A stretch of 64,000 bases of DNA from Yuukianura sp. NJ FZ-2021 (taxonomy: Eukaryota): NCBI GenBank assembly GCA_046563655.1, contig CM102283.1, forward strand, positions 9,176,001-9,240,000, written 5' to 3'. A model generated the notes under the pieces. The model worked only from the letters and a program-made list of their open reading frames with translations, was not told the DNA's origin and searched no databases. Positions 37,288 through 62,586 of the stretch are shown piece by piece; the first letter of the stretch is position 1, and each line of letters starts with the position of its first letter. The position numbers and the translations under genes were made by a program.

Positions 37288-38039
37288 ATTCAAAATCTCA
37301 AGTTTAGCAGCGTAAGCAGAAGTTTTATGCAGCTCAAGCGCAAGTTTTAGTTTTCTTTTTACTTTTTATGGTAATAGTAGCGTCCATGTCCAATTGTGTC
37401 CAAGGTACTAGCTGCAGCTTAACATTTTAATAAGTTTTAGTCTCGCACAGAATGTCGACAGTATTTTTTAGTAACACCAAGAAACTTGTCTTACTGTGGC
37501 AGTTATCAAGTTAGTTAACATTTAAGTTAGTAGTTTAGTTGACACGCTTAAGTTTAGAACGTGGGTGATAACATTTTTAATATTGATTGCATGAATTCCT
37601 TTCAGTAGGTAATTTTTTTTTAGAGGTCAAAGGTCATAGAGGTCAACAAACACTAAAATCCAAGAGCTTTCGACGACAGTGCATACAAATGCAAGAAAAC
37701 GCTTTAGAGTCACATCTAAAAACCTTGTCCCAGCTTAATAAGAGGTTAAGCAAATTTGGAAATTTAAAAAAAAAAAGAGCTCGGGCATGACAAAAAATTA
37801 ACGTAGACAATGGAAAACATTCTCCGTCAAAAAATCTTCCGTTTACTAACAACTACAACCTTAACAATTTTGTAGAAAGTTTTAACTTTTTTTCTTACTT
37901 TTGAGAGTTGTGCTCACGTAACAATTGAAAATGAAACATTCCAACAAAAACGTTTTTAAATTTTTATTTCAAACAGAAAACAGTCATAAAGCGTTCTTTA
38001 AAGTAAAGAAATTAATTTTTAACAATATTTTATTTTTTA

Positions 38040-38382
38040 TTCTAAGTTCAAATTTTTTTTGAAGTGTGATGATGGTTGTGCCACAATTTATTTCAAAATG
38101 GTGCAGAGGACAAATGGGAAAAAGTAATATTTATATCTTGATTTTAACAAAAAATTCTGTTCAGTCTTTTAGTTTTTAAATTGTACTTGTTTTAAGAAAT
38201 CTCGACAAAATACAAATATAGACAAAAAGTTAATAAATCAAATTGTTCCTACTGGATGCCATATTCCAAAGGAGCAAATAAGCAACAGGAAAGGAAATCC
38301 AACGCTTTTCTTAAGCTAGAACCTGCTTTCAATTGGGTAAGTTTTTAAATCAGTTCAATTAATTAATTAGTCTTGAATTAAG
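38040..38382 (-). repeat. Duplicated copy of the Ars2 3' UTR/3' flank lacking the TE insertions
   Basis: taataaatcaaattgttcctactggatgccata (38231) matches ~45648; atttatttcaaaatggtgcagag (38086) matches 41446; gttcagtctttttagttttta resembles 42606. Confidence 0.85.
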
Positions 38383-39959: not shown

Positions 39960-40514
39960 TTATTGTGGTCGTTTGAACTTCTGCTTGTACTCGACATACT
40001 TCTTCACTGCATCCTTCATCGTAATGGAGTCATCTTGGTTTAACACAAAAGCCTTGAAGGACAGCGTAGCCGGTGGTCCAGGATTGCACATTTCGCTACA
40101 AAATGATACTTTTGTTACAAAAACGAAAGTTTGTGTCCACAACAGTAACAACTTCCACATACCGATGATGATGAGGCGGAAAGCATGCACTGTACGGTGG
40201 CGGGTGATCAAATCCGTATTCAGGAGATTCTGGGCCATAACCGTCACCATTCATACCACGATTCCAGTTACAATCGGACCTTCCATAAAAAGAAGTGTTA
40301 CAAATACATGACAGTTGGCAATGTATCAACTCAATGCTAACCGGTCATTGGAGTCAATCCCTTGTGGCGGAAGAGCTGACGTCGGCGGAGTCAAGGGGGT
40401 TGTATCGACAGCTGAATTTGAAATAGTAGTATCGGTAGTTGTGGAACAATTCGTTGTAATTGGTAGTCTCACTGGACTTCGGTCTACACTTGGGGTTTGT
40501 CGTTTCATCTTCAT
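39960..40514 (-). CDS. Diverged Ars2 N-terminal fragment gene (3 exons, ~141 aa), gene or recent pseudogene
   Basis: Exons 40342-40514, 40163-40279, 39960-40095 splice in frame at intron positions homologous to Ars2; GPPATLSFKAFVLNQDDSITMKDAVKKYVEYKQKFKRPQ* vs Ars2 [40 protein letters not shown]. Confidence 0.75.
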
Positions 40515-43025: not shown

Positions 43026-43992
43026 CAGTAACTCTTCGTGAAAGCAGTAAATCGTGAAAACCATGACCACTTCAGATCTTTCCGAATTTTTTCAATGTGA
43101 TAGTGCGTTAGGAAAAAAAAATTTCCCCAAAAAATCAAATTTTTAGCAGTGACCCCTGACAAGTTATCAGTGGTCAAAGTCGCCATTTTGAAAATCTTGC
43201 GTCACGCGTAACTCGGGAAGGGCACGTCCGATTGACCTCATCTTGGTGTCAAAAGAAAGGGTTCAGTGAATCCTAGACGTGTTTTTTTTCAAAATTAGTG
43301 TAAGGGCCCATGGGCCCTTCAGTATTGGTAAGTCAAAAATATCCCGATTTTTTTGATATTTTTCTTCACACAATACCTCTACATAACACGTTTGAATCAT
43401 GATGTACTACCTCCCCCTTGACCTTTAAGGGCACCCTTTGACCTCAAAGGCATCCCTTGACCCCACGAACCACCTCACGTACTTCAACAAATGACTTCTG
43501 ATACATTAAAACCTAATCATATATAATTGTTAATAGGGCATGTGCATGTGCTTATAGAAGCCCTTAAGGGTCAAGGGGTGCCCTTAAAGGTCAAGGGGGA
43601 GGTTGTAGATCACGATACAAACGTCTTATGTAGGGGTATTGTGTGAAGAAAAATATCAAAAAATCGGGCTATTTTTGAATTACCAATACTGAAGGGCCCA
43701 TGGGCCCTTACACTAATTTTGAAAAAAACACGTCTAGGGCTCACTGAACCCTTTCTTTTGACACCAAGATGAGGTCAATCGGACGTGCCCTTCCCGAGAT
43801 ACGCGTGACGCAAGATTTTCAAAATGGCGACTTTGACCACTGATAACTTGTCAAGGGTACTGCTAAAAATCTGATTTTTTGGGGAAAATTTTTTTTTCAT
43901 TAGTACAGCACATGGTAGAAATTTCGTTCATTTTAAAAAATATGATGTGTGTCACTTTTCCAAAAATTTACTGCTTTCACAAAGAGTTACTC
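43026..43992. mobile_element. 967-bp foldback (long-TIR) element
   Basis: Arms of ~420 bp are near-perfect reverse complements over ~43110-43445 / 43566-43898 and at the tips; 4-bp TSD catt. Confidence 0.9.
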
Positions 43993-45823: not shown

Positions 45824-48800
45824 CTAAAAATCGTCCGCATCTTGCGGAGCATCCAAATCCCTGTAGCTGATCATCGATCTGTTGCCACCACGTCCGCGGA
45901 AGTCTGGACGTCCTCTTGGTGGTGGAGCGTTGTAGCCACCTCCACCGTAGTAGCGCGGTGGACCGCCGTAGCCAGGTCCGCCACCGTAGCCACCACCATA
46001 GCTAGAGCATACCATAACATTAACATAAACCTAACCTATGAAAAATTATACTTCCAGAATGTCAACTTACGGCGGAAATGGCGGCGGATAGTCTCCACGT
46101 TCTGGCATGAGCGGCTCTCGTCGTGGAAAACCGCGATCCATTCCAGCAGGCGGACCATCTCTGCGGTCCGGTGACTTTGGACGTTTTGAATCCCGCAAAT
46201 AGTTGTTGAAGTAAGCCACCTAGAAAACCAAAATCAAGTTAATACTGCCAAGTATTTTTTAAAACTTCAATTCTATCCACAACATAGTACTGACCTCCTT
46301 TTTAACTTCCTCCAGTTTTTCAACATGCTTGTTTTGAATGTGCTTTCGAACAAACTCTGGCCCCTTGAACTTCTTTCCTGACAGTGGACACAGCCACTTG
46401 TCTTTTCCAAGTTCCTGCGTATTCGCTGTGATGAACTTCTCCACTTCAGTGTCTTCGTCTTTACTTCCAAGGGCTCTGCACTCTTCGTCCGTCAACGGCT
46501 CCGACTTTTGGCAGAAAGTCACAATCTTTTGCTCAAAGTTCCGATTATAATCTTGCAACTCTGGCAAAACCACCTAAAAGACAGAACAATTAGAAACGTT
46601 CAAATATTCATTGGGACTTCTTTTTTTTTTCAAAATCAAACTTCCATTGAGCTTACATTGGAAGCGGGTGGAAGTCCGCGACCATGCAAAATCCCAAGTC
46701 GATTGGGCATGTCATCTTCATATGGATACTCGGCATGGTTGTAGTAATCCAAACTGTGCACAAATCGCAAGTAGAAAATAAGACGATCCAGAACTTGAAT
46801 CAACTCTTCGTCCCTAGAATTCAAAAAATTCAAAATTTCAAAATTCAACAACATCAAACAAAATTCTCAGAATGCCCCACCTTTCAATTGAATTTCCCTT
46901 CTCAGAATTGCGAGACTCTCCAGGCTCTAATTCTCCGTCACTTCCACCACCCATTGCCAGCAATTCCTCTTCCTCCGCCGATGCTTCCTCAATCAAGTAG
47001 TCCGTGATATTTTTCAAAACAGGATTAGTCGAATACACTCCAAAACTTTCCTTCTTTCCCGCCTCTGGATCTTCATCCCACAAGTTCCACTTAGAATCCA
47101 AAAATTGAATGACTTGTGCTGCCAACCGGATGTCATTTCGAACAATCGTTTTGTGCGGAGTAATTCCATTGACAGTACGAACTCTGCGTGTCAAGTCACG
47201 ATTCACAATTGCTCCCAGTTCAGCATCTTTCATTCGAATATTGTTCAATTGCCAACAGATTTCTGAAAAAAGAGAATAAGATTAATCAAAATCAGACAAA
47301 TTCCACTGCACTGCAACTGCTTAAAATTTTTCGAAATGTACCTTTGATGTTGACATTCCGCTTAAACGTGACCCAGCCACGACGGTACCACCGACGTTCG
47401 GGCTGTGGATCGGCCAAAGCCGATCGCAGGAATCCATCATGCTTCAAGCAAATTCCGTCCACTTCGGCTTTCGTCACACTCGGCGGAATATTTCGCAGGA
47501 AGACAGACGAAGTTTTATGAAGTTGTGGAAGTTCCTCTATTTCTGGTTCTTCTGCCTTCCGTTTCTCTTCAACTTTTGGTGGTGGTTCCTGTGCACCTTG
47601 TCCAGATTCTTCGTCATCCAGAGACACAACAGACTGGGGCCCACCAGAATCCGCACTGATCCGTTTCTTCCTTGGAGATTCGATTTTAGACTGCTCCTCT
47701 TCTCCAGTATCTTGTTTATCTTTAATCAAAATGACTTCAGTTAGTTAAGTTTAAGTTAACTTTAAAAAAATGATCACTGCAAATCTCACCTTCTTTGCCT
47801 TCTTCGTCAGACTCACTGGCTGCCCCATCTTCATCGCCTGCTGCTGATTTCGTTTTCTTCTTCTCCGTTCCGTTCTCCTTGCTCTCTTCTTTTTCCGATT
47901 CCGAAGTACGGATTTCTTTGATTGGCGATGAAATGGAAATTGATGGACGATTGGATCTCGGCTCGTCACTCAGAACTTTTGCTGCTAATTCATCACTTCC
48001 GTCTTCCAAGCGAATGACGTACCAGTCCATCAACTTCGTCAACTTTTCGGCCTGCGAAGCGTCCAAAGTGATTCCCTCGAAACGCTTCTTGTCCATAAAC
48101 TCCATGAAAATGTTCACCCGTTTCTAAAAAAAAACGAAAATTTTCAAAGTAATGTCACTTTAATTATTAATGGAATGCATTTTGACTAGTAACAGCTGAT
48201 CACCCACCTTCAGATTTTGGTATTGCTCTTCCTTCTTCTTCGTGCTCTCGTCTGGATGGTACTTGTTCTTAAACCTGAAGTAAGAAATGATACAAAAGTA
48301 ATTAGTAATAGAATAAATTATATAATTCCTACATTAATCATGGAGATATAACATTATTAATTGAGACGACGTAACAATTAACATTAGTATTGCATCATTT
48401 CATCTTCATCATTCATGTAGTACACAGAGGATTGGCAGTTTGTGCTTGATCATATTCATCAGTATTTTTCCGAAGTGGCTATCGTTGAAATCGCATCATC
48501 ATCATCAATCGATTAGTTATGCCGGGAATCGAGTCTGACTAAATAAATTAAGTGACAATTAACGTTACAATCGCCTTACCAGTTGTTTCAAGAACCCTCT
48601 CACGCACAAAATTCGTAACTTGCTTGTCGTATTATGTCACTTGTTTATAAAAATGAATTCTACTACGGAATAATAATTTTCAATTTCCAATTTTGCTGTA
48701 GCACTGATTAAAATTGAAGAGTTGCGCACTAATCAAATATCAGATAGAATCGGGAGACCACAAAATAACAATCAGATGACAAAATCTGACTGGAGGCTTC

Positions 48801-49624
48801 CGTTGCGGACGTGCTGCTGTTCAGTTAACAATTAGAAATAAATCTTAACTCAGGTTCAAGTTACGATCAGAAGGGAAATTAGTTGGATTGGGATGACGGA
48901 AATCATTGAAGTAAGGAACACAAAGGAAATTGATTTGAAACTTACCATTCCTCGTCGCGATGTGCTAGAAAGAACTCATTTAATTGTTGTCGTTTGAACT
49001 CCTGCTTGTACTCGGCATACTTCGTGAGAGCATCCTGATCCGAAATGGAGTCATCTTGGTTAGACAACCAAGCTTTGAAGGACAGCATTGCAGGCGGTCC
49101 ATGAGGGTCCATTTCGCTAAAAAACAAGACTTTCGTTGCAAAAACGTTTATGTAGAAAACTAGACTGGTTACTAATGCTGCTACTTACCGATGATGATGT
49201 GGGCCAGGAGGAGGGGGGAAGTATCCACCGTGCGGCGGCGGATGGTCGTATCCGTATCCAGAAGATTCTGGACCATAACGATCACCACCCATACCTCGAT
49301 CTCCCCAGTCGTTCCTAGGTCGTTTATGTGGCGGACTGAATTCATGTGGGCCTTGCCTTGGTGGTCCACCTAGTCGGTAATCAATTTGTCGCGGTGGGGG
49401 ACCACGATTCCGGTTCCAATCCGAGCCTCCTCTACAAAGAAAACGTAAATGAGTTCAAATACTAGAAAGTAAACGAATTATACACGTAATCCTAACCGGT
49501 CATTCCAGTCATCTCGTCGACGATCATCCGGTGGAGGACGACGACTTGGTTCACGGTAATCGCTGCGTTCTCCACGGAATTTATCTCGTCGTTTCCGATC
49601 ATACTCGTCCTCAGAGTCTCCCAT
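45824..49624 (-). CDS. Ars2: Serrate RNA effector molecule homolog Ars2 (intact parent)
   Basis: Exons 49497-49624, 49189-49431, 48946-49116, 48208-48274, 47790-48123, 47342-47719, 46881-47262, 46657-46813, 46295-46573, 46071-46219, 45824-46001; [46 protein letters not shown]. Confidence 0.95.
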
Positions 49625-51261: not shown

Positions 51262-53856
51262 ATGTCACAAGAACCAGCACCGGCTTATGCCAATCTTCGT
51301 ACCTTCTGGAAAGCAAGTATGTATCTTCCCGGGGTTATGAATTTGGGCAAACTGCTTAACCTTCGGGAGTACCATCCGTTCCATGGAGTACATCCTCAGG
51401 CGAAGTCGAATACTGGCAGCATTTTGATTAATGTTGCATTCCGGAAACTTGCTTCTTTTAGTTTTATTGCGTTGTGCTCGCGCTTTTAACCTTTATAATT
51501 TTGTCATGATTCTCGCTTCTTTACTACTAGTGCTTGTGTTTAACGTTCTTAACTCACTGTATCTATTTCAAAGGAAAATTTCGGTCTACTGCTCTTCCGT
51601 TACAGTTAACCGCAAGAAACGAACGGCTACTTCTTAAGTTCTCAATTTTCCGCTTGAAGGTTAACATTGCCAAAGTAATCTTCGAAGTTATAATGTTATG
51701 CTTACGGGTGTTTTTGATTTTATATCCGGATAATCCTAAAGTATTTTTATGATTTTGATTTTGTTTTATTTGTAACAGAGTCCGACAAGGGTGAACCCGA
51801 ACCTTCTCCGAAGAAAATATCAGCAACTTTAACTTCCAAGTCACCGAAAACTTCAACTTCATCTCGAAACATGGGAGGTAATCTGATGAACTTTAACATT
51901 TTTGCAAATTACTTAGTGCATCATTCAATATCCTCGTTAATTGAAAATTTTGAAAGTAAAAACAGGAAGCACGACAAGCGACAGATTTTTTCTGCTTCTG
52001 TTTTTTAATACTTGAACTCAATAAGCCCCGTTCTGATTGATATTTTCTGTTTTTCACAGACTTAGCTCCATCCGCTTTGGAATTTGACCAAGAAATCGTG
52101 GGCGTCCACTTGGCTCAATTCCTCAAGTCAGCTCAGCAACTCGGAGGAGAAATTGCAGAACATGCCACTCTTGTGCAAAAAGCTTTCAAGTAAGTCACGT
52201 CACTTATCGTTATGTTCATTTTTCAAGACTTTAAATTCTTATTTTATTGAATTTTCCTCCTTTCAGTGCTCAAAAGAATTTCTTGAATGTCGCCACTCGT
52301 CATGCCAAGCCAGATGACAACACTTTGCAAAACTTGCTCTCGGATACGTCCAACGCCATCTCTGAGATTCAAAGTTACCGTGAGAAAAGACGGTCGAGTC
52401 CAGTATTTAATCACTTGTCTGGAGTGTCTGAAAGTATTCCAGCACTTGCTTGGGTCATGGTGGTAAGCCAGCATTCAGCATTCACTTCAAGTACTTCCAG
52501 CGTTTCCAGTATTTTCGTCATCTAACAAATGATACTGCTTCCAGGCACCAACTCCTGGTCCACATGTCAAGGAAATGAACGATGCTGGCCAATTTTACAC
52601 CAATCGTGTCCTGAAAGACCACAAAGACAAGTAATTGATCATCGTTTCGGTTTCATCAATTCTCAATTGATTGAGTTGATTTATGTTAATGTCAATTTTG
52701 AAATTTCAGGCCAGGACATGCGGAATGGGCCAAGTCATGGGTTGAACTTCTAGTTGCACTTCAAGCCTACGTCAAGAAAAACCACACAACTGGGTTAGTT
52801 TGGGGCAAAGAACCATTGACAGGTAAATAAGTTCAGTAATATACTGGCAGCATATTTTATACTGGCAGCACATTTGACAATTGACAATGCCCAACTTTTA
52901 TTCCTGGAGCAGGACCCGTCCGTGCCGGTGGAGCTCCCCCTCCTCCCCCACCACCCACCTATGACCTTGACGATGTCCAGAACTTGAACATTTCTGGAGG
53001 TTCAGATGACAGAGCCGCCCTGTTTGCTGCCTTGAATCAAGGCGAAGGAGTAACCAAGGGACTCAAGAAAGTTAGTGCTGACCAGCAGACGCACAAGAAT
53101 CCGAACCTCAGAGGCGGAAGTACTGTTCCGGCCAAGGAAAGTTCAAGTACTGCCCAAGTATTGAAAGCACCTTCGGCAGTATCGAAGCCAGCGAAGTTTG
53201 CCTTGGAAGGGAAAAAGTGGTGTGTGGAGTACCAGATTGGGCAGAGGAGTTTGACCATTGACAAGGTGGAAATGAACCAGGTTGTGTATATGTTTGGATG
53301 CAAGGAGTCTGTACTCAACATCAAAGGAAAACTCAATTCAATTGTCATCGACTCCTGTGTCAAAACGGCCGTTGTTTTTGACTCACTGGTGTCCTCTATT
53401 GAGTTTGTCAACTGCAAGGACTGTCAAACGCAGGTACGATTCTAAAAAAAAAATAATAATTTTTTTTGTGTTGTGAATTGTGATTTTAGTTTTCAAAATT
53501 TTTGAAAACTTTGTTTCAGGTCATGGGCAAAGTTCCAACAATCGCGATTGATAAAGTTGATGGCCTTCAAATATACTTGAGCCAGAACTCTCTGGACGTT
53601 GAAATCTTCTCTTCCAAGTCATCCGCCCTCAATGTGATGATACCCAAAGGATCAACTGGAGAATACGTAAGTTAATTAACTTATTTAATTAAACATTTAA
53701 ATTAATTAAACAATTCTCTAAGTTATTTAAGTTATTCAAGGTCTTAACTCTCGTGTTTATGTTTAGTCCGAGACTCCTATCCCTGAGCAATTCAAGACGG
53801 TTGTCACAGGCAAGGGCGGCCTTGTCACTACACCTTCGGAGACTGTTGGTGTGTAA
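51262..53856 (+). CDS. CAP: Adenylyl cyclase-associated protein (CAP/capulet); first two exons tentative
   Basis: [27 protein letters not shown], poly-Pro, WH2 [23 protein letters not shown] repeats, PIPEQFKT; stop at 53856. Confidence 0.92.
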
Positions 53857-54200
53857 AGATCAACTTGTACTGCCAGCACATTTGTCACAAATTGATCACG
53901 ATCTATCATGTAAAGAGTGACTCCTCAGCATTACAGTTGAATCGATTTTACATCATGGGATGTAAGGTAAAGTTTGTACATTGGAAAAGAAGCAATTTCT
54001 GTGTAAAAAAAATTAGGCAAAGAACCAAAAATCTTCAAGTCTGCTGTGCAAAATTTTTCAATGAGTTGAGTAAAGTCATCGATTGAGAAAACGCTTCTGT
54101 GATGGGAATCCTTCGGCGGGAGAAATGAAATATAATGTTTTGTTTGAATAGTGTTTATAAAGTTTATGCAGAATCTTGAATTTTTTTTAGAATGAAGCTA

Positions 54201-55034
54201 TAGTTCATCTAAATTACAAAGAAAGTTTTCAAAATTTTGTTATTTTTCGATTTTGTTGAAAATTACGTCAGTTGACGTGAGGAGCAAGCGCTGCCGGTTG
54301 TAACAAACAGCCGTGTCTTTGGGAAATGCTTTCTTGCATTTTAAAAATAAAAATTTCACTTTTTTTTTTTTTAAAAATTTCCAATTCAAATTAGAAGAAG
54401 ATAATTTCTAATTTCCACTTTTGATAGATTACACTAATTAAAATTAAATTAAATTCCTTACAATTTACGTCGGAAAAATCGCACAAGCGGGGTCCACTTA
54501 AAACGCTATAAAAATTTCAAAATTTTGACGGCTGTTACGTATTTGGTAGTAGCATTTTTGTCGCCACGAAAACGCTACTAAATGCGAGAAATGAGAATAA
54601 AATCATTTTTTGGCAAATATTACACCAAGAGATAAGAAAAGTGCCGTAATAAAATGGACACAAAAATGGCATATTTAGCTACGCATTTGTCGCGGCGTAG
54701 TAAGTGCCAAAATTGCGTACCACATCATTTTTGCCGTCAAAACTAATGAACCTGCTTTTGGACCATTTCGGCCAAATGACACCATTTCATCGTAAGAAAA
54801 TAAATTTCAGAGGTCATTTTCGCTCCCTTCGAGGTCAAATCTCAAATTTCATCAAAATCTAAAATAGCCAAGTCGTGCCTACTCCTCACATGTTCGGCAA
54901 TAAAATAAAATTTGTCATACGTGGATTCACCTGGGTGCACAGTTCATTTACTGCCTTACGCCAACCTAAGAATGTAATTGAAGTTGCTACGGGAAACACA
55001 ATTTGAAAACCTTCTTTGTAATTTAGATGAACTA
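54201..55034. mobile_element. Non-autonomous TIR element with TAGTTCATCTA termini
   Basis: tagttcatctaaattacaaagaaagttttcaaa / tttgaaaaccttctttgtaatttagatgaacta; TA on the left side only. Confidence 0.8.
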
Positions 55035-55062
55035 ATAGAGTATATTAGAGTTTTTTTTTATA

Positions 55063-55280
55063 TACAGTGAGCGCCAGCTAAAACCATACATCCAGAATTG
55101 TTTAATTTTGCAACTGTGGAGGGAAAACATGTGAAATTACGCGATTTGCAAAAATTTCGCCATAAGAATGTAACTGAAGTTTCACCATTCTGAGTTACGT
55201 TTCCCGCCATGTTTACCAAATTTTCACCTCGTTTCTACGGAAACAAAATAGGGGTGTATGGTTTTAGCTGGCGCTCTATA
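55063..55280. mobile_element. ~215-bp MITE
   Basis: 22-bp inverted repeat gagcgccagctaaaaccataca / tgtatggttttagctggcgctc in TA context. Confidence 0.7.
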
Positions 55281-55628
55281 TTTAGTTTATAACTTTTATT
55301 TTGTAAACTGAATACATTACGGCTCATGTGACGATACATAATTCGTAATACACAGTAGGAACTTGATTTAACATGAAAAACTAGGAGGATAGATCGAGTT
55401 TTGAATGAACTCAAGACTTGACATTTAGAGCTAAACTGTAGTAGTAGTAGATTCATTATTTAGGAAAAGTGTTAGAATTTACGATAAATGTAATGTACAG
55501 GAAACACGATCCACCGAATTCTTCATTCTTACTTCAAACACAGAACGTTGTCATCTGTTTCCATACTTTACTGAGATAATAATAGTATTGATCATGACAG
55601 CGGTTTTCTCTTGTCGCCTGTCGCGTTC

Positions 55629-58600
55629 TTAGCTATCTCCTGTTGGAGTTAATTCAGTGACAGAATCTTGGGAGTCACTTACGACATCAGAAGCAGACGG
55701 TGCTTCAGTACTCGTCTCTGCTTGGATAGCGTTGATGAACGCTTCCAAGTTTCCATTTTGTGCAGCCGTGACAGCATCGGCGGAGAATCCAAACTGCGCG
55801 ATCTGTGGGCCAAGTTGTCCAGTGGGGAAAGCAGCACAGAACGCACTCAATGCACTCTGAAACTGCGGAGATTTAAGGGTCTCCTCCACATGTTGAGCCG
55901 CTCCTTCGGATGTCTCGGCTCCACCGAATCGAGGAAGAAGTGGGAGCACCTCGTCCCCATCTTCAGTGGTTTCTTGAGATGTCTCGACTCCACAGAATTC
56001 ATGAAGAAGAGGAACCAATTTCTTTTTCTGGACGGTGTTGGGACAGGCCGTAATGCGCTGGATGGCATCACTGCTCACATCAGAGTCCAAATCAACTGCA
56101 AAATTAGTTGAAAACGTTAATTAATCAAAGAAAGGATTATTGTTGATTAATTACTTCGCTCCTTAACTTTACCTTGAACTTCGGGAAGAGTAGTTTGCAT
56201 TCGAGTGAGAATGGACTGGAGATCTTCTTCTTTATCTTCTAGTTGAATGGGCCCAGGAGCATTGGCGGCAGGAGTCTTCGGAGCTACCGGGGTATTGGGT
56301 TTCTTCACTTTCAGAAGAGATTGTGGTTTAGGTCCAGTGCCCGTACCCGTACCACTACCACCATCACTGGAAGCAGTTTCAGTTGCAGTCGAAGCAGCTC
56401 CGTCAGTACTGCTACTTCCTCCTCCTCCTCCGCCAAGGTTGGCCAATCCCGGAGCAAGCTGGTTCAGTTGCGCCAATAGTCCGGATCCTTAAGACAAAAA
56501 CACAGGAAACAATTCAATAGCCGTTGCTGAAGCAAGCTTTAAGCATTTACTATGTGAACTTACCTCCCATTTCACTCATTCCACCTAGCAGTTGCATCGG
56601 CTGAGACTGACTCATACTACCGACCAAGTTTTGCATCTCCTGTTCCGATGCACTCGGCGTCACACTGCCACTGGCTGCTCTTCCGCCTGATCCACCAGGG
56701 TTGTTCAAATTTTCATATTTCATTAGAGGTTGTTTAGACAAAAGATCGAACGAAAGCAGGACGTGCGGTCCTTTAGGGGCCATGAGGGGTGGACCGAAAT
56801 CAAGTGACATTGGCCGTTTTGGATCACGCAAATAGTTGTTGAAGTAAGCCACCTACCAAACCAAAATCAAGTTAATACTGCGAGGGGTTGTTTAAATTTT
56901 GGCATTCCACTCACCTTCTTTTTGACTTCCTCGATTTGTTCGACATGCTCGGTTTGAATGTGATTTCGAACGGACTCAGGCTCATTGAAAACGTTTCCGG
57001 AAAGGAGACACTCCCAGTTGTTATTTCCATACTTCTGCGTACTCGCTGTGATGAACTTTTCAACTTCAACATCTTCGTCCATACTGCCTAGGGATCTGCA
57101 CTCTTCGTCCGTTAATGGTTCCGACTTTTCGCAGAAAGTCGCAATCTTTTGTTCAAAGTTTCGTTTATAATCTTGCAACTCCGGCAAAACAACCTAAAAC
57201 ACAGGTCACAGGTAAAACACGTTCAACTGACTGGCAGAGTTCTTTCAGAATCAATGTTGGCTTTTTAAAACTTACATTAGAAGTGGGTGGAAGTCCGCGA
57301 ACATTCAAAATCTCAAGCCGATTGGGCCTGCCATCTTCGTAAGGATACTCGGCATGGTTGTAGTAATCCAAACTGTGCACAAACCGCAAGTAGAAAATAA
57401 GACGATCAAGAACTTGAATCAACTCTTCGTCCCTAAAATTCAAAAAAATTCATTTTCAAAATTTCAAAATTCCAAAACCTATGAAAAAAAAAAAAGAAAT
57501 CTCAGAATGCCCCACCTTTCAATTGAATTTCCCTTCTCAGAATTGCGAGACTCTCCAGGTTCCAACTCTCCGTCACTTCCGCCACCCATTGCCAGCAATT
57601 CCTCTTCTTCCGCCGATGCTTCCTCAATCAAGTAGTCCGTGATATTTTTCAAAACAGGATTAGTCGAATACACACCAAAACTTTCCTTCTTTCCTGCCTC
57701 TGGATCTTCATCCCACAAGTTCCACTTAGAATCCAAAAAGTGAATGACTTGTGCTGCCAAGCGAATGTCATGGCGAACAATCATTTTGTGTGCAGTAATT
57801 CCATTGACAGTTCGAACTCTGCGTGTCAAGTCAGGAAAGACAACGGCTTCCAGTTTGGCACCTTTCACTTCAATGTTGTTCAACTGGCGAGAGATTTCTA
57901 AAAACAGAACAAAAATGATGAAAACAAACATAAATTCTAATTGTTTAGAATTCTTTTAATGTTGGCACCTTTGATGTCAACGTTCCGTTTAAATGTGACC
58001 CAGCCATGACGGTACCATTGACCGTTGACCTCTTGTGGATCGGTCAAAGCCGAACGCAGGAACCCGTCATGCTTCAAGCAAATTCCGTCCACTTCGGCTT
58101 TCGACACACTCGCCGGAATATTTCGAAGAAAGACAGACGAAGTTTTATGAAGTTGTGGAAGTTCCTCTACTTCTGGCTCTTCTACTTTCCTTTTCTCTTC
58201 AACTTTTGGTGGAGCTTCCTGTGCACCTTGTCCAGATTCTTCGTCATCCAGAGACACAACAGACTGGGGCCCACCAGAATCCGCACTGATTCGTTTCTTC
58301 CTTGGAGATTCCACTTTAGACTGCTCCTCTTCTCCAGTATCTTGTTTATCTTTAATCAAAATGAATTTTTAGTTAGTTTAAAATAACTTTTCAAAAAAAT
58401 TATTACTGCTTCAGTCACCTTCTCTGCCTTCTTCATCTGACTCACTGGCAGCTCCAACTTCATCGCCCGCTGAATGCTTAGTTTTCTTCTTCTCAGTTCC
58501 GTTCTCCTTGCTCTCTTCTTTCTCCAATTCCGAAGTACGGATGTCTTTGATTGGGGATGAAATGGAAATCGATGGACGATTGGATCGAGGCTCGGTGCTC

Positions 58601-59256
58601 AGAACTTTGGCTGCGAATTCATCACTGTCGTCTTCCAGCCGAATGACGTACCAGTCCATCAACTTCGTCAACTTCTCAGCCTGCGAAGCATCCAAAGTGA
58701 TTCCCTCGAAACGTTTCTTGTCCATAAACTCCATAAAAATGTTCACCCGTTTCTAAAAAAAACGAAAATTCTCAAAGTAATGCGACTTTAATTATTAATG
58801 GAATGCATTTTGACAAGTAACAGTTGATCACCCACCTTCAGATTTTGGTATTGCTCTTCCTTCTTCTTCGTGCTCTCGTCTGGATGGTACTTGTTCTTAA
58901 ACCTGGAGTAAGAAATGATACAAACAAAAGTAATTAGTAATTGAATAAATTATATCATTCCTACAGTAATCATGGAGCTATAACATTATTAATTGAGAAC
59001 AACGTAACAATTAAATTAATGTTAGTATTGCATCATTTCAACTTCATCATTCATGAAGTACACAGACGATTGGCAGTTTGTGCATGATTATATTTATAAT
59101 TTAACCATATTTACAATATTTACAATTTGACCATTAGGGAATATAATTGTAACACATAAACTGCTTTGAAACTTACCAATCTTCATAACGATGAGCTAGA
59201 AAGAAGCCATTGAGACGCGCGGTAGTTGAAATTGCAGGGTCCGGAGGGGGTGCCAT
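55629..59256 (-). CDS. Chimeric Ars2(core)-Rpn13(C-terminal DEUBAD) fusion gene, ~916 aa from ATG 59256
   Basis: Exons 59177-59256, 58836-58902, 58419-58752, 57969-58349, 57516-57897, 57276-57432, 56915-57193, 56564-56852 (junction exon), 56173-56487, 55629-56095; all GT-AG, phases compatible, no internal stop. Start and last exon are uncertain. Confidence 0.85.
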
Positions 59257-60956: not shown

Positions 60957-62586
60957 TTAGTCTACATTCATGTCCTCGACCTGTAAGAATCAACGATAAT
61001 GCCGAAAATTAGAATGCTAGTCAATTAGTAACTCGTCTGTATTGAGACAACGGAAAATGGTCACTTACCACATCAGAAGTAGCTGGTGCTTCAGTACTGG
61101 TCTCTGCTTGAATAGCGTTGATAAACGCTTCCAAGTTTCCATTTTGTGCAGCCGTGACAGCATCGGCGGAGAATCCAAACTGAGCAATCAGTGGGCCAAG
61201 TTGTCCAGTGGGGAACGCAGCACAGAAAGCACTAAGGGCAGTCTGAAACTGCGGAGACTTAAGGGTCTCCTCCACATCCTGAGCAGTTCCCTCCGATGTC
61301 TCGGCTCCACCAAATTGGGGAAGAAGTGGGACCAGTTTCTTGACGGTGTTGGGACAGGCCGTTATGCGCTGGATGGCATCAGTGTTCATAGCGGAGGCCA
61401 AATCAACTGCAAAAAATAGTCAAAAACGTTTATTAATCGAATAACTGCTTAATCTTGATTAATTACTTCGTTTCTTAACTTTACCTTGAACTTCGGGAGC
61501 AGTTGTTTGCATTCGGGTGAGAATGGACTGGAGATCTTCCAGTTGAATAGGCCCAGGAGCATTGGCGGCAGGAGTCTTCGGAGCCACTGGGGTATTCGGC
61601 TTCTTAACTTTGAGCAAAGACTGCTGCTTAGGTCCAGTGCCCGTGCCACTACCACCACCACTGGAAGCAGTTTCAGTTGCAGTCGAAGCAGCGCCGTCAG
61701 TACTGCTACTTCCTCCTCCTCCCCCGCCAAGGCTGGACAATCCTGGAGCAAGCTGGTTAAGTTGTGCCAGCAATCCGGGACCTTACAACACAAACACAAA
61801 GAAAACAATGTAACAATGTTGAAGCAAGATTTAAGCATTTACTTTATTACTTTGTGTACTTACCTCCCATGTCACTCATTCCACCCAGCAATTGCATCAG
61901 CTGAGACTGACTCATGCTACCGAGCAAGTTTTGCATCTCCTGCTCCGATGCACTCGGCGTCACACTGCCACTGGCTGCTCTTCCGCCTGATCCACCAGGG
62001 TTGTTCAGAGCCTCGTTGACCTTAAAATCAAACGAAAATTGACAATTTAGTGACGATTTGCAACATGGATGTTAGTTGTTCGCTGTTTTACCTTCCAAAC
62101 CAAGTCGTCGTCACCGTCATCCTTGGGTTCTTGCATCCAAAAGAAAAGCTTCCTGGCGCTGACCTTGAACTTCAACAAGAATACTCGAGAGCCTTCCTTG
62201 CATTGAGTCACCTTCTTGTACTCACAATCTAGAAATCAAATGTTAGAAATGAGAAATCAAAATCCATCGTTGATGACTTGCTGGAAGTCCTCATACCGTC
62301 CGGAAACACGATCAGATCCTGGAAATACAAAATCCATTTTACAAGCTCAGCTTAATCCATATAAAAAGTCCAGAAATATGTGAGTCTTCAGACGACTTAC
62401 ATCTTCAAGCGTTCCAGTCTTACGATCCTTCCAGCAAAAGTGAGTCAGACCATCTTCCGACTGGAAGATAAAGATCAGTCCTTTTCTCTTGTCAGGCGAA
62501 ACCAAGTTGCCCACTTGATTCATCTTTCCAGCTCGGAACTCCACGATGTTCTTGGGTTGACGACCGCCCAACAGTCCTGAAGCCAT
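60957..62586 (-). CDS. ADRM1: Proteasomal ubiquitin receptor Rpn13/ADRM1 (intact parent)
   Basis: Exons 62401-62586, 62297-62318, 62092-62228, 61864-62020, 61485-61781, 61069-61406, 60957-60980; Pru ([21 protein letters not shown]), DEUBAD ([11 protein letters not shown]...GQLGPL), ends VEDMNVD*. Confidence 0.93.

Follow-up and report, generated by a model that had tools for sequence, protein, structure and literature searches.

An in-frame Ars2-Rpn13 chimeric gene beside both intact parents in Yuukianura sp., a candidate proteasome-independent DEUBAD protein

The ASXL proteins, like Rpn13 (ADRM1) of the proteasome and INO80G (NFRKB), carry a DEUBAD domain. The core helices of this domain bind the ULD of the deubiquitinase UCH-L5 (UCH37), and in INO80G a short insertion, the FRF hairpin between helices alpha4 and alpha5, makes the domain an inhibitor of the enzyme instead of an activator; when the hairpin is grafted into Rpn13, activation is abolished and binding is kept (PMC4352763). 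In Ars2 (SRRT), a protein of nuclear RNA sorting, the C-terminal tail contacts the cap-binding complex (CBC), lysines K719, K722 and K734 of the human protein sit on a surface that binds EDGEI-type motifs, and the triple alanine mutant of these lysines no longer binds FLASH, NCBP3, ZFC3H1 and other partners (according to PMC9402713). Chimeric genes that arose from tandem or segmental duplication are reported from Drosophila (PMC5460883). Here we analyze a stretch of 64,000 nt, hereafter the window, from Yuukianura sp. NJ FZ-2021 (GenBank assembly GCA_046563655.1, contig CM102283.1, positions 9,176,001 to 9,240,000 of the forward strand), in which a first-pass annotation, made from the sequence alone, had proposed a gene fusing Ars2 to the DEUBAD of Rpn13. 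We are somewhat inclined to believe, at a little better than even, that this chimera is a lineage-specific chimeric protein-coding gene of a springtail-like hexapod kept by selection, with a product that would act as a proteasome-independent DEUBAD protein and bind UCH37.

The chimera lies at 59256-55629 on the minus strand, as do both parents and all copied or leftover pieces of them described below. Its ten exons (59256-59177, 58902-58836, 58752-58419, 58349-57969, 57897-57516, 57432-57276, 57193-56915, 56852-56564, 56487-56173 and 56095-55629) splice in frame into 2751 nt, that is, 916 codons and a stop, and its introns are GT-AG in 9/9 cases, the setting being a eukaryotic window with introns of 60-90 nt and a G+C content of 31-46%. 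The Ars2 parent (45824..49624) is intact with 11 exons and 821 residues, including the N-terminal region, the KKFK..NKH patch of the zinc finger (ZnF) and a C-terminal tail of the YRDLDAP type; the Rpn13 parent (60957..62586) is intact with 7 exons and 386 residues, including Pru, linker and DEUBAD, with AATAAA 27 nt past its stop. By blastn against the window, 56804-59097 matches 46171-48459 of the Ars2 parent with 85.7% identity over 2335 columns and 59158-59211 matches 48927-48980 of the same gene (81.5%), while 55674-55948 and 55950-56707 match 61060-61334 (90.2%) and 61267-62007 (83.2%) of the Rpn13 parent. The Ars2-derived span runs from the 3' end of exon 1 through the 5' end of exon 8, and the Rpn13-derived span from the 3' part of exon 8 to exon 10. 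Exons 2-7 (56915..58902) are copies of Ars2 exons 4-9, which hold the N-leg, acidic region, RNA recognition motif (RRM), mid/C-leg and ZnF; the six full exons have the same phases and, apart from one 3-nt indel, the same lengths (67/67, 334/334, 381/378, 382/382, 157/157 and 279/279 nt in chimera and Ars2). Exon 9 (56173..56487) is a copy of Rpn13 exon 5, with the Gly/Ser/Thr-rich linker, the start of the DEUBAD and two in-frame indels of 6 and 12 nt, and exon 10 (55629..56095) is a copy of Rpn13 exon 6, with the DEUBAD and the stop at 55631-55629. Both parents are identifiable, intron positions are common and the junction is present at the DNA level, as is characteristic of a chimeric gene. 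The first-pass annotation had described ten stop-free exons in frame, Ars2 exons copied at the same intron positions and two intact parents in the window, and it is borne out here on these points and in all its exon coordinates.

The two halves meet inside exon 8 (56564..56852), which consists of the start of Ars2 exon 10 (56852-56804), a linker (56708..56803) and then Rpn13 exon 4 (56707-56564). The linker is 96 nt long, that is, 32 open codons, and its reading frame joins both halves in frame. A junction within this exon, with a mostly unmatched linker leading into LNNPGGSGG, had already been proposed at first pass, and indeed the linker core matches neither parent by blastn; the score of its local alignment with exon 10 and intron 10 of Ars2 does not stand out from shuffled sequences (110/300 reach it), and its best local match, 14 nt at the 3' end of Rpn13 intron 3, is in the expected place and marginal (22/300 shuffles reach the score). 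The former Rpn13 acceptor AG is absent at the junction, thus the linker is necessarily read through.

Both ends of the chimera differ from those of the parents, in ways that the first-pass annotation had not described. Exon 1 (59177..59256) starts with the predicted ATG at 59256; its last ~35 nt (up to 59211) come from Ars2 exon 3 (48980-48946), and its 5' 45 nt, within which the predicted ATG lies, have no assigned origin. Ars2 exons 1 and 2 and most of exon 3 are not in the chimera, and with them the first ~168 residues of Ars2 are gone. Since the frame upstream of the ATG is open to 59373 and a pyrimidine-rich acceptor-like site stands at ~59296, the true start of the chimera is uncertain; the upstream open reading frames at 59.3-60.9 kb match no Pfam family. 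At the other end, the Rpn13 copy stops ~10 nt beyond the intron 6 donor. The small C-terminal exon of Rpn13, acidic and conserved, was left out of the copy and is missing, and for this reason the frame ends inside what was intron 6. In the read-through tail (55629..55682) the former intron-6 donor (GTAAGT, 55682) has become coding, with 54 nt of the old intron translated in frame into 17 new residues and a stop. The motif AATAAA also occurs 330 nt past the stop; as it shows no enrichment in the window, we give it no weight as a poly(A) signal.

The synonymous divergence (dS) between chimera and parent is 0.323 in the Ars2 block (560 codons) and 0.308 in the Rpn13 block (260 codons), and since it is equal in both halves, one event or two events close in time would fit. 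Exons of the chimera differ from the parents by 10-19% and introns are 61-94% identical to theirs; the age of the chimera may be put at ~0.15 neutral substitutions per site on its own branch (~0.3 pairwise). Amino-acid changes were polarised in the Ars2 block with the springtail outgroups P0016-P0019, where among 560 aligned positions 488 are identical, 57 changed on the chimera branch, none on the parent branch and 15 are ambiguous. In the Rpn13 block, polarised with the outgroups P0002, L001 and L002, 237 of 266 positions are identical; the chimera branch accounts for 16 changes, 11 at homologous positions and 5 in the non-homologous tail, the parent branch for 6, and 7 positions are ambiguous.

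A ratio of non-synonymous divergence (dN) to dS near 1 against the parents had been named beforehand as a sign against the proposed gene. The pairwise ratio (omega) is 0.21 in the Ars2 block and 0.15 in the Rpn13 block, and when all non-synonymous and half of the synonymous changes are laid on the chimera, omega is still at most 0.50 (Fisher p = 1.4e-4) and at most 0.37 (p = 3.6e-4), respectively. Internal exon indels are multiples of three in 4/4 cases (3, 6, 12 and 75 nt), as against 6/22 for intron indels; half the intron density would predict ~31 indels over the 2460 aligned coding nt (Poisson P(<=5) = 1e-8). The chimera has no stop in frame, whereas neutral simulations starting from the parental codons remain open in 28/5000 runs with 128 substitutions, 6/5000 with 185 and 0/5000 with 393. 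Splice dinucleotides are kept in 18/18 cases, with introns ~20% diverged, and low dN goes together with high dS at residues 55-94 (dS 0.49, dN 0.015) and 690-731 (dS 0.45, dN 0.035). An internal control is offered by a decayed Ars2 remnant near 40 kb of the window, whose origin is discussed below: over 75 codons it has a dS of 0.45, a dN of 0.19 and an omega of 0.43, near the 0.5 expected of one neutral and one constrained lineage. We consider it probable that the frame of the chimera has been kept by selection, which appears to have preserved the frame, the splice sites and a large share of the protein, with the clearest signs in the Rpn13 linker and the DEUBAD.

The C-terminal ~330 residues of the chimera are a diverged copy of the neighbouring Rpn13, beginning just past Pru. 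No chimera exon has a Pfam match to Pru (PF04683), and Rpn13 exons 1-3, which encode it, have no counterpart. The DEUBAD profile PF16550 matches exon 10 with 61.4 bits (cut-off 39.3; parent 81.7), the exon aligns to residues 313-395 of human Rpn13 at E 4e-15, and human Rpn13 DEUBAD chains in the PDB match it at E 2e-16; the predicted product carries, by these measures, a bona fide DEUBAD. Inside this domain we found an in-frame tandem duplication of 75 nt (55950..56024), not recorded at first pass, which adds 25 residues by repeating the end of the LVPLLP helix and the next loop. Mapped on the alignment with human Rpn13, the insert falls at the end of alpha3 and in the alpha3-alpha4 loop. An AlphaFold2 model of exon 10 has helices at residues 2-16, 18-22, 26-34 and from 65 to 129, uses the first repeat copy as helix, and leaves 37-67, with most of the insert, disordered. 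A Foldseek search with this model returns Rpn13 DEUBAD structures in all of the top 7 places, with E values of 0.002-0.06 and none <=0.001.

As for the other half, chimera residues ~15-575 copy Ars2 exons 3-10 over ~560 residues. PF04959 matches exon 7 with 77.5 bits (cut-off 30; parent exon 130.2) and human ARS2 structure chains match the same exon at E 1e-19; PF12066 (SERRATE/Ars2 N-terminal) reaches 18.1 bits on exon 3 alone against a cut-off of 27.3 (profile positions 67-109 of 110), in a single-exon scan of a domain that is split over exons. The changes in this block are concentrated in the RRM and the ZnF, while a block of 108 residues (341-448) has no amino-acid change and the 5 changes at residues 376-415 are all synonymous. 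Ars2 homology ends at 56804 in exon 10, so the last 1.5 exons of the parent, with the YRDLDAP-type end, are absent and the chimera has no C-terminal CBC tail, nor does it have the Gly/Pro/Tyr-rich region of Ars2. In a gapless alignment of exon 7 to human ARS2, where only one Lys triple has the spacing +3/+15, the equivalents of human K719, K722 and K734 are N, N and E in the chimera and K, K and K in the Ars2 parent; the nearby K720, K729 and K738 are also changed in the chimera, to V, N and Q. Because the C-terminal tail, the N-terminus and the lysine triad are all lost, every interface by which Ars2 is known to work is absent from the predicted product. The first-pass annotation had stated that the chimera drops the CBC tail and Pru, which agrees with the end of Ars2 homology at 56804 and the start of Rpn13 homology at 56707. 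Its further statement that an RRM/ZnF core and the DEUBAD are kept holds in part: the DEUBAD is above its Pfam cut-off and the core is present in outline, but the triad reads N, N, E, the RRM and ZnF are near-neutral and the N-terminal ~168 residues are gone.

The remaining Ars2 half could in principle be the active one. In that case the chimera would act as a decoy or dominant negative in nuclear RNA sorting with the DEUBAD as a passenger, and the retention of ~560 core residues, the PF04959 score above cut-off and the unchanged 108 residues at 341-448 would find an explanation. We hold this for very improbable, as the tail that contacts the CBC (PMC9402713) and the N-terminal 168 residues are missing, the K719, K722 and K734 equivalents have become N, N and E, and it is the DEUBAD half that is better conserved. 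The opposite idea, that the selected product is a shorter DEUBAD-only protein started at an ATG within exon 8 (the Met that follows KRP) under an intron 7 promoter, with the Ars2 exons as a leader or a separate decaying unit, draws on the strongest constraint being in the Rpn13 half (omega 0.15, 11 changes versus 6), on the ATG that opens the linker and on the near-neutral stretches of the Ars2 half. It too seems improbable to us: no stop falls within the Ars2-derived exons, therefore any transcript over them would be translated into the DEUBAD; some Ars2 windows are constrained (residues 55-94 with omega 0.03, and 376-415 with no replacement against 5 silent changes); and the Ars2 half retains every splice site and its exon lengths.

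Several observations weigh against a selected chimeric protein that binds UCH37 and must be set against the evidence above. Transcription, start site and splicing of the chimera are predictions, and the branch estimates assume that dS splits equally between chimera and parent branches. Over the RRM (residues 255-335) and the ZnF (496-575), omega on the chimera branch is ~0.8, i.e. near-neutral (36.3/103.5 synonymous, halved, versus 54.7/376.5 non-synonymous), and large parts of the Ars2-derived body may be drifting. Owing to the 25-residue insert, the PF16550 match comprises only profile positions 41-112 in one stretch; the DEUBAD is altered by this insert in its core and by the lost C-terminal tail, it has a Q where the other four sequences of the alignment all have L, and its AlphaFold2 model, from a 5-sequence alignment, is middling (mean pLDDT 63.6). 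The protein and metagenome searches reported below returned neither a protein nor a contig that has both halves. Finally, dS along the chimera is a mosaic of 0.09-0.72, exon 2 is identical to Ars2 exon 4 in 67/67 nt, and intron 2 is 94% identical against 61-88% for the other introns. These three features point to gene conversion from the parents, with 58752-58902 probably a recent conversion tract from the Ars2 parent, and under conversion dN can drop and the frame be repaired without selection on the chimera itself.

A rival reading is that the chimera is an untranscribed or functionless relic, whose frame has been kept by repeated gene conversion from two nearby parents plus luck. The mosaic dS with its identical exon 2 and 94% identical intron 2, the near-neutral RRM and ZnF, the loss of all three canonical Ars2 interfaces and the lack of a relative with both halves would all suit such a relic. 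However, the most diverged and evidently unconverted parts are open as well: in exon 7, at 81% identity, none of the 52 mismatches has introduced a stop, and the frame runs on through the linker and the 75-nt insert; splice dinucleotides are kept in 18/18 cases around introns that have diverged by ~20%; windows with dS of 0.45-0.56 have dN of only 0.015-0.07; and conversion did not rescue the 40-kb remnant, which is as near to the Ars2 parent as the chimera itself and has a dN of 0.19. We therefore regard a relic as unlikely, and a protein-coding chimera under selection as the better explanation.

The integrity of the locus was examined in the sequencing runs listed for it, five runs (X1-X5), none of them recorded as RNA, which is neutral as to expression; X1-X4 come from a single sample that may have been used for the assembly. 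Contigs of X1 give depth in 30/30 bins of the region, and contigs with zero differences cover the chimera-specific stretches 56926-57372, 57710-58096, 58335-58658 and 55805-56224. Among the listed pieces (30 of 683) no near-identical contig bridges 56708-56803; only record 17 of X3 does. This piece of 378 nt spans 56481-56856, taking in all of the junction exon as well as intron 8, and shows 31 differences besides 5 gap letters; it could represent another, diverged haplotype or copy of the chimera, or else the assembly graph may have crossed over within a 62-nt stretch common with Rpn13. This bridging situation, and the fact that the runs holding the region well are the single sample X1-X4, are what an assembly artefact joining reads of both parents has in its favour. 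We find such an artefact extremely improbable: divergence from each parent is 10-19% in exons and higher in introns, the chimera has its own indels and a private linker, and it is covered by the zero-difference contigs and the X1 depth just mentioned. Since the parent matches are 81-90%, reads of the parents themselves, at 100%, could not have given rise to it through misassembly. Run X5 is from another organism (0.10 of words) and yields short pieces only; its exon pieces carry parental bases at the listed sites 57164 and 58495 and are probably that organism's own Ars2 and Rpn13, and the parts that this run leaves uncovered carry no information. Contig differences were considered as polymorphism of the chimera and rejected, for 20/22 of those examined (of 40 listed, with 274 more) are the parental base, parental contigs being drawn in at 90% likeness; a test on polymorphism (pN/pS) was dropped for this reason. 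Likewise, a polymorphic 75-nt insert was rejected, the joint 55945->56025 looking like parental Rpn13 sequence.

The first-pass annotation knew of no described Ars2-DEUBAD fusion and had suggested a search for the junction peptide in related species, which was here run against protein and metagenome collections; these sample springtails thinly, so that a blank is weak evidence. Among word-indexed longer proteins the junction has 1 match, an ordinary Rpn13, and among proteins of near length none. A HMMER scan of 1.84 billion representatives gives 13 matches, 11 of them only at residues 47-96 and none with both halves; the matches to P0007 (18-76) and P0014 (17-65) are weak, at 27-30% identity, and 10 matches that were examined are ordinary Rpn13 preceded by Pru sequence. 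In JGI metagenome contigs 13 loci each match one half only, the ESM Atlas gave no usable match, and PF16550 occurs in 0/120 of the best 120 of 535 matches to Ars2 exon 5. Among the matches listed, Folsomia candida, a springtail, is the closest named relative of the window Ars2, with 67% identity over exon 5, and others in the best 120 of 535 stand above it with 71-85%. In the literature, no paper holding both 'DEUBAD' and 'Ars2' was found. In none of the protein and metagenome matches to the junction exon do its Ars2 start and its Rpn13 part occur together, and the claim that no such fusion is described agrees with an architecture met in none of these searches.

The order of the genes, Rpn13, chimera and Ars2, all on one strand, is that expected from a tandem duplication with its ends in Rpn13 intron 3 and Ars2 exon 10. 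A simple tandem duplication fits the order and the junction, but as the whole story it was rejected, leaving the missing Ars2 5' end, the missing last Rpn13 exon and the 40-kb remnant unexplained; the event is more complex. The remnant (39962..40344) is a decayed copy of Ars2 exons 2-3 (39962-40262, 73% identical to 48983-49300), open until a stop exactly at the breakpoint, and in the alignment its homology to Ars2 stops within ~3 nt of the place where that of the chimera starts. Since the end of the remnant meets the Ars2 start of the chimera, they appear to be parts of a single Ars2 copy split in two, whose 5' half now lies 16 kb from the chimera. Two scraps are found nearby, a decayed piece of the Ars2 3' region at 38230-38381 (73% identity) and 61 nt from just past the Rpn13 poly(A) signal at 37688-37748 (92%). 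In the scenario that we propose, local duplication and rearrangement would join two copies, one of Ars2 that begins at the end of exon 3 and breaks off midway through exon 10, and one of Rpn13 running from the very end of intron 3 or from exon 4 to exon 6, the join falling inside one exon that is read through in frame.

Further features of the window lie between or beside these genes. At 54168-55291, ~1.1 kb and 340 nt past the chimera stop, a stretch is skipped in some X1/X2 contigs (joints 54168->55291 and 54201->55290); it has a 33-nt inverted repeat in its flanks (55002-55034 versus 54233-54201, 97%), contig depth at 54924-55385 is 4-10x that of neighbouring sequence, and it looks like a repeated mobile element, possibly with presence/absence polymorphism. 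Between the Ars2 parent and the 40-kb remnant, 965 nt at 43027-43991 match their own reverse complement at 84%, forming a large palindrome or foldback. An exon of adenylyl-cyclase-associated protein (CAP_C, PF08603, 103.6 bits) is located at 52885-53445 on the plus strand, between the chimera and the Ars2 parent.

If the chimera is transcribed and translated as one protein, its product would be of ~100 kDa and would still bind the deubiquitinase UCH37 through the DEUBAD. Having no Pru domain, it could not be expected to dock on the proteasome. With neither its N-terminus nor its CBC-binding tail, and without the lysine triad that binds effectors, the Ars2-derived body would no longer work as an adaptor of the cap-binding complex, and it would serve instead as a new scaffold or targeting module. 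The 25-residue insert beside the alpha3-alpha4 loop could change the effect on UCH37, towards activation, inhibition or titration. The predicted protein is, by its sequence, neither an Ars2, for it fails in tail, lysine triad and N-terminus, nor an Rpn13, for it has no Pru. More tentatively, and with doubts that outweigh our confidence, we may think of a new class of DEUBAD protein, a regulator of UCH37 off the proteasome that arose within a springtail lineage, with a stripped Ars2 core as targeting scaffold and an insert retuning the activator towards inhibitor or decoy, which would be a recent and datable replay of an INO80G/ASXL-type origin.

It remains to place the chimera among known systems. 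A chimeric gene born of local duplication is of a known kind, jingwei and Sdic being chimeric genes of Drosophila, while the combination of Ars2 with a DEUBAD appeared nowhere in our searches. With the genes born of duplication the chimera has in common that neighbouring genes are fused at the DNA level, that the parents are retained beside the fusion and that the new copy is asymmetrically accelerated; it differs in the join inside an exon, the unmatched sequence that serves as a coding linker and the complexity of the event. To have both intact parents, the fusion and a decaying leftover of the same event in one 25-kb stretch is less common among resolved cases, and the leftover provides a built-in neutral control. 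If the chimera is not expressed, it would be an example of gene conversion and chance holding a long frame open; if it is expressed, it would be a natural experiment on moving a DEUBAD to new scaffolds and on small inserts that alter the control of UCH37. In either case a division of labour is seen in the fusion, with the DEUBAD half conserved and the Ars2 half having shed every known partner interface. Compared with Ars2/SRRT, the chimera shares the intron positions of residues ~15-575 and a PF04959 match above cut-off, and differs in having lost the first ~168 residues, the Gly/Pro/Tyr-rich region, the YRDLDAP-type tail and, by substitution with N, N and E, the lysine triad. Compared with Rpn13/ADRM1, it keeps the Gly/Ser/Thr-rich linker and the DEUBAD; it has no Pru, so it is without the known means by which Rpn13 binds Rpn2 and ubiquitin, and it carries the 25-residue tandem insert, the change of L to Q and 17 residues read from an intron in place of the acidic C-terminal exon. 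The likeness to INO80G/NFRKB and ASXL is that of a DEUBAD set on a body unrelated to the proteasome. Unlike theirs, the DEUBAD of the chimera is a recent copy of Rpn13 and not an ancient paralogue, and its insert, which is a tandem repeat and no FRF hairpin, precedes the alpha3-alpha4 loop and so sits nearer the start of the domain than the insertion of INO80G.

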